A stretch of 11,546 nucleotides of DNA from a virus (IMGVR_UViG_2703718868_000005); one strand, 5' to 3'; counted from the stretch's first letter, positions 392 to 6,156 are shown. Notes: generated by a model not told the origin, from the letters alone. Translations and numbers: made by a program.

Positions 392-664
392 TTAACGTAC
401 TCTGACAGTATTAATTTCAAAATCATTAATATTTCCGCTATTAAATATAACGAATTTCTTACCCCCACTCCTGTATGATTTCGATAACACCAGACGATCA
501 TCATAGCGCGCAATAATGTAATACCATACATTCTCATAGTGGACCGCCTGATATTCCCTCTTAAACTGTGGTTTGTACCAACCGGCAATAAGAGAGAATG
601 CCCAGAAATAAATCATAAACCCAGCCATCATGAACTCAATTCGGTGATGGCGAATAACAGACAT
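392..664 (-). CDS. Hypothetical small membrane-anchored protein (one predicted TM helix FMMAGFMIYFWAFSLIAGWY, K/N/I-rich C-terminus)
   Basis: ATG start at 662-664. Lies in very AT-rich DNA (about 30% GC) where long ORFs are unlikely by chance. No recognisable family and a weak RBS. Confidence 0.35.
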   Translation of the reverse strand: MSVIRHHRIEFMMAGFMIYFWAFSLIAGWYKPQFKREYQAVHYENVWYYIIARYDDRLVLSKSYRSGGKKFVIFNSGNINDFEINTVRVR

Positions 665-926
665 TTCCGAAAAACATTTGACTGAAACAAGTCTTCTTCC
701 AGACCTGACAAAAAGCGTGATTGCAAAGGCAGCAAGAACACAGAAAAACTGTCACAGCATAAAACAAACTTCGTGCCACATCATCGACACCAGCCCCGAC
801 AACCCACCATGGAAAGCCATAGTAAAATGAAGTACCCCATCCATAGAAATAAGCGCTCCCCCATCCGAGACAGCCCATATAAGCAACAAAAAGTGAAGAG
901 TTTCTGAGCAGAGCACTGTCATCCAT
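636..926 (-). CDS. Hypothetical Gly/aromatic-rich hydrophobic small protein
   Basis: ATG at 924-926 with GGTG about 6 nt upstream. Unusual G/W/F/Y-rich composition. Overlaps the alternative frame 752..994, so the coding assignment is uncertain. Confidence 0.25.
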   Translation of the reverse strand: MDDSALLRNSSLFVAYMGCLGWGSAYFYGWGTSFYYGFPWWVVGAGVDDVARSLFYAVTVFLCSCCLCNHAFCQVWKKTCFSQMFFGNVCYSPSPN

Positions 927-1068
927 AGTAACACCATTAACAACTCAAAAATATCAACACACATTACATAACAAATTGGATTCCATGCAGTCAAGGGGCG
1001 TCATTGATGGAGAAAGTATTGGCACAATCGTCATCACGTTTAATGTCTATGCCATTTTTTGGGGGGGT

Positions 1069-1094
1069 AAAAAACCCGCTCGGTCACGGGTTTT
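1069..1094 (-). terminator. tR'-like intrinsic terminator downstream of the Q-like gene
   Basis: Plus-strand AAACCCG (1072-1078) pairs with CGGGTTT (1087-1093), flanked by an A-run on one side and a T-run on the other, so it could act in either direction. Sits next to a G7 homopolymer at 1061-1067. Confidence 0.4.
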
Positions 1095-1139
1095 AGTGGC
1101 TTTGTCATCACGTATAATAACGGCAAAATATCAGATTTA

Positions 1140-1175
1140 CACGAAACATATGCCTTTTTATCTACTTTTGCAATA
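1140..1175 (-). promoter_or_regulatory. Candidate late promoter (pR'-like) immediately downstream of the Q-like gene
   Basis: On the minus strand: TTGCAA (plus 1167-1172), a 17-nt spacer, then TATGTT (plus 1144-1149). A hairpin terminator follows about 50 nt downstream. Identified by position and motif only. Confidence 0.3.
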
Positions 1176-1180
1176 CTTTG

Positions 1181-1846
1181 CTATGAAAATGCCGCCTTTT
1201 GTTTTGAACGTGTTCCCTCCACCAACAATAAAGCTTCACTATCCAGCCGATGAAAAATGTGTTTCATTGCAACCCAGTGACCAGTAAATGTCTTGGACCA
1301 GTTTTTGGTTGTTACTCCCACCAGTAACGCCAGTTCCTGGTATTCGTAACCTTCCCCACCAAAAAGCTCAGCTTTTACCGCCTGCGCCGCCAACCAGATC
1401 AACGTCTTCAGGCGCACCAGAGTTTTTCCTGCAATTTTTCTGGTACCGGATTGAGCATTAAATTCAGTCCACGCCCACTGCGTTATCGCGATCTGATGGT
1501 CCCAGCAAATGCTACCGCTGTAACACCACTGCAGCCAGGCTTTATGATGTTCTTCAAGAGACAGAACGGCGCGTCGCCATGATGATGTCGAAAACTCAAC
1601 CGGACTGACCAGCGCAATTGATGAGCCTTTCGCCAGTGATTGTTTACCCGGGATCGGTGGGTTATCCCGCGTGATCATTTTTCCGGTTACCTCATCGCGG
1701 TAACGAATTTTTTTGCGTCTGTAACGCCCTGTATCGAACAGGGCATTTTCCTGCCAGGCTTCCAGCTGGCCTTTTGTCGACCCACTGAGATCCGCAGTGG
1801 CAATCATGAGTTGCTCACGAACAAACTGTAAATACTGGTTATTCAT
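1181..1846 (-). CDS. Putative late-gene antitermination protein (Q-like), assigned by position
   Basis: 221 codons from ATG 1844-1846 with SD GAGGTGGG. ORF-track frame extends to GTG at 1852. Lies directly downstream of rusA and upstream of the promoter/terminator pair, as Q does in lambdoid phages. No sequence motif confirms the family. Confidence 0.55.
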   Translation of the reverse strand: MNNQYLQFVREQLMIATADLSGSTKGQLEAWQENALFDTGRYRRKKIRYRDEVTGKMITRDNPPIPGKQSLAKGSSIALVSPVEFSTSSWRRAVLSLEEHHKAWLQWCYSGSICWDHQIAITQWAWTEFNAQSGTRKIAGKTLVRLKTLIWLAAQAVKAELFGGEGYEYQELALLVGVTTKNWSKTFTGHWVAMKHIFHRLDSEALLLVEGTRSKQKAAFS

Positions 1847-1867: not shown

Positions 1868-2200
1868 TTATCTCCAGCCGTCCACCAGATACTGGCTGCC
1901 ACGTACAATATTGATTTCATCAAACTGCTCATCGTCCATTAACAACCCCGCGTGCGTCAGCGCATCCAGCGGTGCTTTCAGAATATTGTCCAGGTCACGG
2001 CGGCGCTTATCCGGTGGCTCTGCAATAATTTTTATTGCCAGCCGTCCGGACAGGCTTAATTTCAGTCGCTGCTGGCGAACAATAAGCGCCACTGCCCGGC
2101 GATAACGCTCCCCGGCTTTTGATACAAAATATGTGCTGCCACGGCGTCGCCAGTAAGTGTTCACCGTCGGCGGGTAAGGTAAAACCAAATCTATGAGCAT
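1868..2200 (-). CDS. rusA: Holliday junction resolvase RusA
   Basis: 110 aa with the RusA hallmarks PPTVNTYW, YRRAVALIV and DKRRRDLDNILKAPLDALTHAGLLMDDEQ. Strong SD AGAGGTGA about 5 nt upstream of the ATG. Confidence 0.9.
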   Translation of the reverse strand: MLIDLVLPYPPTVNTYWRRRGSTYFVSKAGERYRRAVALIVRQQRLKLSLSGRLAIKIIAEPPDKRRRDLDNILKAPLDALTHAGLLMDDEQFDEINIVRGSQYLVDGWR

Positions 2201-4410: not shown

Positions 4411-4720
4411 AAATTACCGCAGTGATGCACTTGCATCTGTACATGAAATGATGGAGTCACTCCATGATATCGGTGCAATCACAAAACAAACTATGCGCGA
4501 ATTCGATGAAACTTGTCTTCAGCCTGCGCCGGTAATGTCTCCGGAAAGGATCCGTGCACTGCGAGAACGAGAGCATCTGTCTCAACCTGTTTTTGCCAGA
4601 TACCTCAACGTCAGTAAAAACCTGATATCAGACTGGGAACGAGGAGTGAAACGCCCGGGAGGTGCAGCTCTTCGGCTTCTTTCAGTTGTCGAGAAAAACG
4701 GGATCCAGGTAATATCCTGA
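4403..4720 (+). CDS. HTH-type antitoxin (HigA-2-like) partner of the upstream toxin
   Basis: 105 aa. ATG overlaps the toxin stop (ATGAGTAA) and SD GGAGG sits 6 nt upstream. Motifs SQPVFARYLNVS...DWERG...PGGAALRLL match antitoxins paired with HigB-2-type toxins. Confidence 0.85.
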   Translation: MSKNYRSDALASVHEMMESLHDIGAITKQTMREFDETCLQPAPVMSPERIRALREREHLSQPVFARYLNVSKNLISDWERGVKRPGGAALRLLSVVEKNGIQVIS

Positions 4721-4822
4721 TATTCTAATACAACAAAACCCGCCGAAGCAGGTTAAGTGCGGGTGCGTTGAGGATGCCTGACACATCAGAGGTGGCGAGG
4801 GATTTCTCCCTCGCCAGGTCTC

Positions 4823-4978
4823 TTACTCCTCAGGTTCGTAAGCTGTGAAGACAGCGACCTCCGTCTGGCCGGTTCGGATTCGTACCTCGCAGAGGTCTTT
4901 CCTCGTTACCAGTGCCGTCACTATGACGGTTAAACAGATGACAATCAGGGCGATTAACATCGCCTTTTGCTGCTTCAT
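4823..4978 (-). CDS. hokD: Hok-family type I membrane toxin (HokD/RelF-like)
   Basis: 51 aa, MKQQKAMLIALIVICLTVIVTALVTRKDLCEVRIRTGQTEVAVFTAYEPEE, matching HokD/RelF as I recall it. SD AAGGAG upstream. An in-frame upstream ATG at 5035 gives the 70-aa ORF-track frame, at the position of mok. Confidence 0.9.
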   Translation of the reverse strand: MKQQKAMLIALIVICLTVIVTALVTRKDLCEVRIRTGQTEVAVFTAYEPEE

Positions 4979-5026
4979 AGCCTGCTTCTCCTTGCCTTTC
5001 GGCACGTAAGAGGCTAACCTACATGT

Positions 5027-5095
5027 GCAAAGCATGAAATTGGCCTCAGATTAATGTTAAGCGTCCTGCAAGACGCGTAATGTTAACTGGGGCTT
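5027..5095 (+). ncRNA. Possible Sok-like antisense RNA opposite the hok leader (position approximate)
   Basis: Inferred from hok/sok locus architecture. Weak promoter-like TTGCCT-17-TAACCT at 4992-5020 and a hairpin GCGTC-CTGCAA-GACGC at 5061-5076 on the plus strand. Exact ends not determinable from sequence alone. Confidence 0.2.
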
Positions 5096-5249
5096 TTCTC
5101 TGTCTGCCTTACGGCGGCATGCCCGAGGCAGACAGCCTCAAGCACCCGCAGCAATTCTACTTAACTCTTCTTTCCCCGCAAATCATTTTATCCCCGATGG
5201 TAATGTTCTCCCGATATGGGAATTCCCATATCAAGGTTAACTCAATCGG

Positions 5250-5801
5250 TTAAAGCTCCATTAATTTTCCGGCCAGTTCATCTCGTGGCATTACCAACCA
5301 TCCGCGCGATTTAAGCAAAGCCAGGGCTTCTTCAACCGTCACCAGCTGGCCAGGCGCATCACTTCGGATGAAGGCGGTTTTATCGTCACGGATCGCCAGG
5401 TGAAAATCGATATTCATTTTTCCCATAGCCCGCTCTTTCTCGTACTGGTTGAAGTAACTGTCTTCGAGTTTTTCGAATACTTCCCACGCCTGATCGGTTT
5501 CGAGCATTTTTGCATGACGGGCTGCTCCGCGTTCTGTCCAGAGGATGAGAGTGCGGGTTTTGGGAGAAATTTTCACCTCATTTTGCGACTCGTTTAAAAC
5601 TAGTCGCAAATTTTTGAGCTCATCACCAACAGCTTTAAAGAAGTGTTTTCCCTCAATAAATCGAGATTTATTTTCATGGTGATTCTGCTGTATACGGATT
5701 GCTTCTGTTCCGTAAAGGCGGGCGAGTAACTCAGTTGTGATTACAGGAATCTGGTTATAAGTGACAGGGGAAAGGTTTTTGACAGTAACTTGAGTCGTCA
5801 T
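5250..5801 (-). CDS. ORF6N-domain (KilA-N/antirepressor-like) phage regulatory protein
   Basis: 183 aa. N-terminal motif IPVITTELLARLYGTEAIRIQQNHHENKSRFIEGKHFF and later LILWTERGAARHAKML resemble ORF6N antirepressor domains. SD GAGGG about 8 nt upstream of the ATG. Confidence 0.75.
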   Translation of the reverse strand: MTTQVTVKNLSPVTYNQIPVITTELLARLYGTEAIRIQQNHHENKSRFIEGKHFFKAVGDELKNLRLVLNESQNEVKISPKTRTLILWTERGAARHAKMLETDQAWEVFEKLEDSYFNQYEKERAMGKMNIDFHLAIRDDKTAFIRSDAPGQLVTVEEALALLKSRGWLVMPRDELAGKLMEL

Positions 5802-5962
5802 GATAACGCCCTCTGGTTGATGAATTTAACTATCACCACCTTCAGGTCTCAATCATCAGGTGGCGAGACGTACAGGGTTGAGACTACCGGATCAACCAAC
5901 CGGCCAGCCTTTCGGCTGCCCCATACGCCTCACCATAATTCAGATGTGCGTGCGCATACGAC

Positions 5963-5987
5963 AATAAAAAACACGCTCGCGGCGTGT
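5963..5987 (-). terminator. Rho-independent terminator ending the replication-side operon
   Basis: Minus strand reads ACACGC-CGCGA-GCGTGT followed by TTTTTATT. Confidence 0.6.
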
Positions 5988-6072
5988 GTCTGTCGCGGTT
6001 GAATATCCGGGGTCTCAATCCCGACGGTCAACTCGACCGTGCGGTGAATATAGCCCCGGATTAGTAATTACG

Positions 6073-6156
6073 TCAACCCCAGCGGCAAATCGAATAAACC
6101 ACCAGCGCTACCGCCATTGCAACTCCTACCGTTACGAATGCCTCAGGCCTAGTCAT
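6073..6156 (-). CDS. 27-aa hydrophobic small ORF (MTRPEAFVTVGVAMAVALVVYSICRWG), candidate membrane peptide
   Basis: Its ATG overlaps the TGA stop of the upstream HTH gene (ATGA), with AGGATAG as a possible SD. One predicted TM helix. Followed by a structured region and a terminator. Not in the ORF track because it is short. Confidence 0.35.
   Translation of the reverse strand: MTRPEAFVTVGVAMAVALVVYSICRWG

Follow-up and report, generated by a model that had tools for sequence, protein, structure and literature searches.

A probable phage-82-type late-gene control region with an IsrJ-like leader downstream of the Q gene of an E. coli prophage

The prophage and its Q gene

The window analysed here is the whole 11,546-nucleotide stretch of viral DNA IMGVR_UViG_2703718868_000005, which matched the genome of E. 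coli CFIAFB20190157 at 99.95% identity and without gaps. All genes in the window lie on the minus strand, and coordinates written from high to low in this text refer to that strand. The early region is Qin/Rac-like, with dicB, cI/cro-like genes, hokD, a relE-like gene, DUF968 and rusA. The late region is of the kind seen in Stx phages: Q and a gene for a hypothetical membrane protein are accompanied by those for a DNA methyltransferase, tRNA-Ile/Arg and a nanS-like esterase, and by the lysis genes (holin, lysozyme and Rz). The prophage has no stx gene.

The Q antiterminator gene (1846..1181) encodes a protein of 221 aa and ends in a TAG stop codon at 1183..1181. The ORF matched Pfam family PF06323 (Phage_antiter_Q) across its entire length (E 7.4e-91) and PHROG 304, 'anti-termination protein Q-like' (E 4.6e-106). 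Its product is 77% identical to the Q protein of phage 434, which is annotated 'Q82-like', and 66% identical to STM2617 of Gifsy-1, which is annotated as similar to REGQ_BP82. Phage 82 itself was absent among the matches listed for this protein, the best 60 of 73 phage-collection records, and no solved structure among those searched was related to it by sequence. On the strength of these similarities, the ORF is assigned to the phage-82 family of Q antiterminators. An earlier analysis of this DNA, made without database searches and referred to here as the sequence-only reading, had proposed that a Q-antiterminated pR'/tR' pair lies behind a Q-like gene, and had regarded clear homology of the 1181..1846 protein to a non-Q family as a finding that would speak against the proposal. 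The protein is instead clearly a Q by both PF06323 and PHROG 304, and since it falls in the phage-82 family this objection is removed.

In the lineage of the window, Q ends 8 codons earlier than in most relatives. In the latter, AAG replaces the TAG at 1183..1181 and the Q ORF continues for 8 codons across the -35 hexamer of the promoter described below, to a TGA within the promoter spacer, such that the late promoter overlaps the Q coding sequence (window 1181-1207 region).

Other parts of the prophage show signs of decay. The first gene after the tR' terminator is broken by a 178-bp deletion at window position 747 (between 746 and 748, relative to positions 4655-4832 of the related locus L003). 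Many other E. coli genomes have this first late gene intact, with a product of 237 aa (PHROG 1521, function not known), whereas the window has it as two ORFs, 926..636 and 664..392. The rusA homologue (1868-2212) gives a further sign of prophage decay: its ORF, 2200..1868, encodes 110 aa (PF05866) compared with 120 aa for the intact form in STEC1585, and the annotation of NZ_CM143728.1, the record with 99.95% identity, gives the gene as frameshifted. In a prophage decayed in this way, the late operon driven by the control region described below may no longer be complete.

A hok/sok-type toxin-antitoxin locus is located at 4823-5147 on the minus strand, with a sok RNA at 4973-5147 (117 bits), and hokD is annotated at this locus in the matching genome record. 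The minus strand of the segment 5250-6080 carries isrK (5966-6040, 51 bits), a C4 antisense RNA (5856-5940, 69 bits) and an ORF6N-domain antirepressor-like gene (5801..5250), with a promoter, TTGACG-17-CTATAT, at about 6076. This isrK-C4-antirepressor module (6080..5250) is P1 immI-like. It is part of the early region in the window, whereas in Gifsy-1 it is found between Q and isrJ.

Promoter, pause element and terminator behind Q

A sigma70-type promoter could be read from the minus-strand sequence behind Q, with the -35 hexamer TTGCAA at 1173..1168, a 17-nt spacer, AAGTAGATAAAAAGGCA, at 1167..1151, and the -10 hexamer TATGTT at 1150..1145. The sequence-only reading had described the same promoter, TTGCAA-17-TATGTT, and it is present at 1173..1145, except that it begins 7 nt rather than 9 nt from the Q stop codon (TAG 1183..1181 to TTGCAA 1173). 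The -10 hexamer is followed in order by TCGTGT, AAA (1138..1136), TCTGATATTTTGCC, an A/T-rich stretch and the terminator hairpin. The AAA, 7 nt past the -10 hexamer, is the predicted start site, with +1 at A1138. The spacer is a putative Q-binding element (QBE), positioned by reference to the QBE of phage 82, which lies between -35 and -10 within the 82PR' segment -31..+30 (Wells et al., PMC4914094). The spacer motif RAYTRAA shows partial conservation among relatives; the window has GATAAAA where most relatives have GATTRAA. The -10 hexamer of most relatives is TATATT, and the TATGTT of the window is weaker.

Taken alone, the promoter hexamers are no better than chance. They match the consensus at 8 of 12 positions, and a simple promoter scan of the window with a threshold of 9/12 listed neither the pR' promoter nor its terminator hairpin. 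The scan returned 5 sites in the window, compared with 3.6 +/- 1.9 in shuffled sequence. Matches at 8/12, missed by a scan that gives similar numbers of sites in shuffled sequence, would be expected if the hexamers were fortuitous and the hairpin were simply the terminator of the early operon that contains Q, with no separate transcription unit behind it.

Conservation argues strongly against such an arrangement. Regions downstream of Q homologues were collected from one genome per species, giving 13 loci (E. coli, Shigella, four Citrobacter, Klebsiella, Raoultella, Buttiauxella and one further Enterobacteriaceae), and further regions were taken from 80 IMG/VR loci and the phage records 434, Gifsy-1 and vB_EcoM-606R7. 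From -35 to +17, there were zero gaps in all aligned loci, behind Q homologues of 57-92% identity, and this gap-free architecture recurs behind Q homologues in six or more genera, with terminators at about +27 to +111. The -35 sequence was TTGCAA in every variant among the approximately 90 loci. In 16 diverse relatives, the -35 hexamer had a mean column identity of 0.99 and the -10 hexamer one of 0.91; the value was 0.90 both for +1..+5 and for the pause element, TGATATTNT, and 0.64 for +18..+40. It is this conservation across genera, together with the covariance-model match described below, that carries the observation of a promoter and terminator beyond chance. An early-operon terminator next to fortuitous hexamers does not account for -35, -10, AAA and TGATAT remaining gap-free across genera while the neighbouring non-coding sequence diverges. 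Nor does it account for Gifsy-1, in which the promoter and IsrJ leader are located about 870 bp from Q, past an inserted module, and yield the experimentally mapped IsrJ RNA. We consider that explanation extremely unlikely.

Some other candidates were scrutinized in the same region. A promoter-like site on the + strand at 1102-1129, found by the simple scan, has no conserved partner features, and a + strand ORF (976..1287) that overlaps the region was considered spurious, with no family match. On the minus strand at 965-994, TTGACT (994..989) is followed after 18 nt by TG-T-TATGTA. This sequence, which the simple scan did not list, is a possible weak promoter for the downstream gene starting at 926.

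Downstream of the predicted start, the window could be placed in register with phage 82 pR'. Given +1 = A1138, an extended -10-like sequence, TGATATTTT, with the composition TG-A-TATTTT, lies at +6..+14 and is followed by GCC at +15..+17; together (1133..1122) they form a predicted sigma70-dependent pause-inducing element. With the same +1, GTTATTAT occupies +18..+25, with U at +25, and a promoter-proximal pause is predicted from the phage 82 register at +25 (U) and +26 (A), 1114..1113. In the published description of 82 pR' (Bird, Strobel and Roberts, PMC5001585), the pause element has an extended -10 and is closer to TATAAT than that of lambda, a GCC 'discriminator' occupies +15-17, and an A/T-rich segment precedes the pause at +25 (U) and +26. 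The elements of the window match this description, the match being to features given in the published text and not an alignment. The predicted start within an A-run also fits the slippage at initiation that is reported for 82 pR' in the title of a study cited in PMC5001585. In addition to the extended -10-like pause element, the GCC at +15-17, the U at +25 and the A-run start, the window shares with 82 pR', as known from the Roberts and Hochschild laboratories, a Q protein in PF06323, a promoter located directly after or overlapping the 3' end of Q, and an intrinsic terminator shortly downstream. It differs from the phage 82 type in its -10 sequence, TATGTT, and its putative QBE spacer differs from that of most relatives. 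Of the components that define the phage 82 type, a Q gene, a sigma70 promoter after Q, a pause element and a downstream intrinsic terminator can be recognized in the window.

The intrinsic terminator, tR' (1094..1069), is a 9-bp hairpin with U6 at +44..+70. The hairpin, AAAACCCG / TGACCGAG / CGGGTTTT, is located at 1094..1071 and U6 at 1074..1069; the stem pairs AAAACCCG(U) with (G)CGGGUUUU around a loop of 6-8 nt. It starts 50 nt past the -10 hexamer, in agreement with the distance of about 50 nt given in the sequence-only reading. The hairpin has a dG of -11.6, and the fold of 1140..1055 (86 nt) has an energy of -17.6 kcal/mol, which is moderately unusual relative to shuffles (z = -2.7). The predicted RNA is 68-71 nt long and ends at about +68 to +71. 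When leaders were scanned for a hairpin and then a T-run between +27 and +111, such an arrangement was found in 46 of 48 distinct variants, and most of these were convincing terminators. In the other two variants (L042 and L067) a terminator is present that the scan missed, and in one of the 46 (L040) the early hairpin reported by the scan is spurious, with the genuine terminator visible elsewhere in the leader. The E. coli relatives keep the stem CCCG/CGGG while their loops vary (TGACCGAG, CCCACAAG, CGACCGAG and CCGCCAAG). Citrobacter, Klebsiella and one further Enterobacteriaceae have terminator hairpins of unrelated sequence at the same place. The terminator of phage 434 begins as early as +27, which indicates that a short leader is normal for Q82-type leaders.

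Taken together, we consider it very probable that the minus-strand segment 1173..1069 controls the late genes of a lambdoid E. coli prophage of the phage 82 type. In the mechanism that we propose, the sigma70 promoter TTGCAA-17-TATGTT would start transcription at about A1138, and by analogy with lambda, the Stx phages and Gifsy-1 it is probably constitutively active. The sigma70 still bound to the polymerase would then rebind TGATATTTT (+6..+14) and bring about a pause at about +25/+26. Q, when present, would bind the spacer DNA between -35 and -10 and join the paused complex, giving a terminator-resistant polymerase that reads through into the late region, with its membrane-protein gene, DNA methyltransferase, tRNAs, and lysis and morphogenesis genes. 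When Q is absent, transcription would stop at the hairpin and U6 (1094..1069), and an IsrJ-homologous RNA of about 68-71 nt would be released. The Q-antiterminated pR'/tR' pair with a short transcript, as originally proposed for this DNA, is therefore supported by the Q82-family ORF and by elements conserved in many genera, as well as by a register equal to that of the published phage 82 features and by the detection of the Salmonella homologue, IsrJ, as a 74-nt RNA.

On this interpretation, the unit is the usual switch by which a lambda-like E. coli prophage controls its late genes, with a logic that appears similar to that of lambda pR'/6S RNA and of the StxS-producing leader of Stx phages. 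Short terminated pR' RNAs have been reported for lambda, 21, phi80, 82, P22 and Stx phages (PMC7547250). The logic shared with lambda 6S RNA and Q-lambda consists of a constitutive promoter, a sigma70-dependent pause, loading of DNA-bound Q, and a short terminated RNA in the lysogen. However, the lambda Q belongs to another protein family, the lambda pause is at +16/17, the leader is 194 nt long, and the sequences show no similarity. None of the 151 complete E. coli genomes with the locus has it annotated, and for annotators the unit marks where late transcription would start and stop. In prophages with a Stx-phage-like late region, the promoter and terminator are expected to set both basal and induced expression of downstream cargo.

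A predicted IsrJ-type leader RNA

A permissive Rfam scan of the region matched isrJ (RF01393) at 1141..1070, over the full length of the model (1-75), with a score of 20.1 bits (E 0.07-0.14); this score is below the gathering threshold of 37. The isrJ scores obtained at the same position behind Q are graded, from 100.3 bits in Gifsy-1 through 70.5, 69.4, 38.3, 36.6 and 27.3 in relatives to the 20.1 of the window. A covariance model was then built from non-E. coli leaders (Gifsy-1 IsrJ and seven others, eight in total), and its sole match in the window was at 1141..1067, with a score of 55.9 bits (E 7e-13). This match and the graded isrJ scores indicate that the unit in the window is a divergent homologue of IsrJ, that is, as judged from its sequence, a divergent IsrJ-type leader. 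The Rfam isrJ model begins 3 nt upstream of the predicted +1 (A1138), and the start of its consensus, UGUAAAUCUGAUAU, corresponds to the conserved start region plus the pause element. Since the Rfam model at its threshold misses this locus, a broader covariance model could be used to annotate Q82-type late promoters and leaders across the Enterobacteriaceae.

Gifsy-1 IsrJ (RF01393; Padalon-Brauch et al. 2008) shares with the window the promoter layout, which in Gifsy-1 reads TTGCAA-17-TATATT-6-AAA, the first 14 aligned nucleotides, UGUAAAUCUGAUAU, which are identical, the presence of a terminator hairpin, and a length of about 70-75 nt. The two diverge in their middle part and in the sequence of the terminator, and these differences account for an Rfam score in the window of 20.1 against the threshold of 37. 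The genetic arrangement differs as well: in the window the unit directly follows Q, while in Gifsy-1 the isrK-C4-antirepressor module intervenes between Q and isrJ. In the Gifsy-1 segment 7515-7625, isrJ lies behind its TTGCAA-17-TATATT-6-AAA promoter and begins with the TGATAT pause element. IsrJ resembles a terminated leader transcribed from the late promoter of Gifsy-1, and the isrJ promoter has the appearance of the cognate site at which the antiterminator AntQ (STM2617) of Gifsy-1 would load; both assignments are strongly supported by the sequence comparison. A statement that IsrJ is the leader of a Q82-type late promoter was not found in the literature searched and may be made elsewhere. 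In the literature searched, IsrJ is described as an independent sRNA and the site of AntQ is not located. A link of IsrJ to a Q82-type pR' could help to explain the phenotypes that have been published for IsrJ and AntQ in Salmonella. An RNA of 74 nt with a promoter of its own has been detected by experiment for IsrJ (PMC2330248), and this is the strongest indirect evidence to hand that the architecture shared with the window initiates and terminates transcription at the places predicted.

Ahead of the terminator, the RNA could form a leader hairpin (+11..+39, 1128..1100) in which UUUUGCC, at the end of the pause element, pairs with GGCAAA. This hairpin is weak in the window (dG -5.0 kcal/mol, z = -0.8), where an A at +35 weakens the pairing. 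In the closest relatives, which have G rather than A at +35, the corresponding values are -12.2 kcal/mol and z = -3.2. The hairpin is strong in Citrobacter and Buttiauxella also, where it is formed by different sequences. When leaders were folded lineage by lineage, z ranged from -3.0 to -3.7 in some lineages and was +0.3 in Gifsy-1. The Rfam isrJ consensus has a hairpin at the same place, and the hairpin is thus recurrent without being universal. A search for covariation with RNAalifold on MAFFT alignments recovered the terminator only, with the lineages in different registers. Since the leader hairpin is insignificant in the window and in Gifsy-1, we do not claim it as a conserved functional part of the unit. 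A weak match of the leader to Rfam isrK (16 bits) was rejected as a chance similarity driven by the terminator, the genuine isrK being that at 5966-6040 (51.2 bits). Sub-threshold Rfam matches to a snoRNA, a Trp leader and sroD were considered to be noise.

The homology to IsrJ also raises the question whether the unit is mainly a stand-alone sRNA gene of the IsrJ or StxS kind, possibly Hfq-binding and acting in trans on host mRNAs, for which the position behind Q would be secondary. Such a role would not conflict with the pR'/tR' reading. In Salmonella, IsrJ has an effect on invasion and on the translocation of effectors (PMC2330248), and in Stx phages the Hfq-binding sRNA StxS arises by processing of the pR' leader (PMC7547250). 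The predicted 3' end of the RNA in the window, a G+C hairpin followed by U6, is the usual Hfq-binding end. The prophage from which StxS derives has a different, 933W-type Q. StxS resembles the RNA predicted here in being a short RNA from tR' termination in STEC prophage lysogens (PMC7547250), and is a 74-nt 3' fragment produced by RNase E processing of a longer leader, with cleavage at +173 (PMC7547250). However, the strongly conserved RNA positions of the unit are limited to +1..+17 and are explained by a pause element acting at the DNA level, whereas beyond +17 the sequence differs between lineages (identity 0.64) and no conserved seed is evident; the leader hairpin, as described above, is weak in the window. 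An sRNA gene in its own right is for these reasons an unlikely description of the unit, and the late-gene control region remains the reading that we prefer. We are similarly doubtful of the broader proposition in which the leader of about 70 nt in this widespread E. coli/STEC prophage lineage acts in trans as an E. coli equivalent of IsrJ and StxS; that the virulence-linked IsrJ would itself be a Q82-type leader expressed from an AntQ-loading promoter is, as described above, the strongly supported half of this proposition.

The C7 tract and the module junction after the terminator

Directly after U6 and a single A (1068), the minus strand has a C7 tract (1067..1061), which is followed by an A6 tract (1060..1055) with a length of A6-A7 among relatives. 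The G7 that had been noted on the + strand at 1061-1067 is thus present as C7 on the sense strand. It had been described as abutting the terminator stem; it in fact adjoins the U-tract side, with the A at 1068 between, and the G+C stem is untouched. The tract is located about 60 nt downstream of the pause element and about 100 nt downstream of the putative QBE spacer. The suggestion that slippage in this tract could change the geometry of the terminator or of the Q site was borne out as regards variation in length, which ranges from C3 to C7 in relatives, but the tract lies 3' of the U-tract and at such a distance from the putative QBE that it cannot alter the geometry of the Q site.

The length of the tract in related prophages, which the sequence-only reading had proposed to survey, was examined in IMG/VR contigs and complete E. 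coli genomes, and the range C3-C7 was found. In 33 IMG/VR contigs, the longest C-run was C4 in 17, C6 in 13, C3 in 2 and C5 in 1. Of 151 complete E. coli genomes with the locus, 61 had exactly C6 and three had C7 (STEC1585, STEC1587 and CFIAFB20190157); C8 was found in none. By this comparison, the G7 of the window is a rare +1 variant of the common C6 allele, and the pattern fits occasional replication slippage that has become fixed in lineages rather than a switch. The adjacent homopolymers at 1055-1074 all vary in length (T5-T8, C3-C7 and A6-A7), with T9 in one locus that also carries a G-to-T change in the stem. Variation in the T-run alters the U-tract of the terminator, and is more likely than variation in the C-run to affect termination.

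Phase variation was considered, in which the length of the G7/C7 tract would act as a slippage switch by altering either terminator efficiency, and with it basal expression of late genes and cargo, or the loading of Q. The lengths of the C-tract and of its flanking T and A runs do differ among close relatives, and in vitro the sequence just downstream of a U-tract can modulate the efficiency of intrinsic termination. Of the features expected of a phase-variable tract, length polymorphism is therefore present, but the tract is in no sense-strand ORF and is not situated between the -35 and -10 elements. It is outside the hairpin, 3' of the U-tract and far from the putative QBE, and the occurrence of one dominant allele (C6, with 61 genomes against 3 for C7 and 0 for C8) has a lineage-stable appearance rather than that of a rapid on/off change. 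In addition, related lineages are non-repetitive at the same spot, with ATGCCTGA, ATGCCCTGA or GTGCCACT, and seven residues are few for high-rate slippage in E. coli. A slippage switch is accordingly very unlikely in our view; a small effect of C7 on termination efficiency through the downstream duplex is conceivable but speculative. Within the late-gene control region that we favour, the C7 tract, being past the expected point of RNA release, would drift in length as replication slips, and this drift would affect regulation little if at all.

The homology of the region to phage 606R7 and to PPompW phages stops just before the C7 tract, which places the tract at the boundary between a Q-pR'-tR' module and an exchangeable downstream module. 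Lineages that have the same downstream module show ATGCCTGA, ATGCCCGA or ATGCCCTGA in place of the C-run, and these non-C sequences at the same spot indicate that the C-run is a derived low-complexity stretch. In Klebsiella sp. BIGb0407 (locus L041, approximately 2280-2315), five tandem copies of GTGGTA are found directly after tR', so that low-complexity sequence marks this module junction in another genus too.
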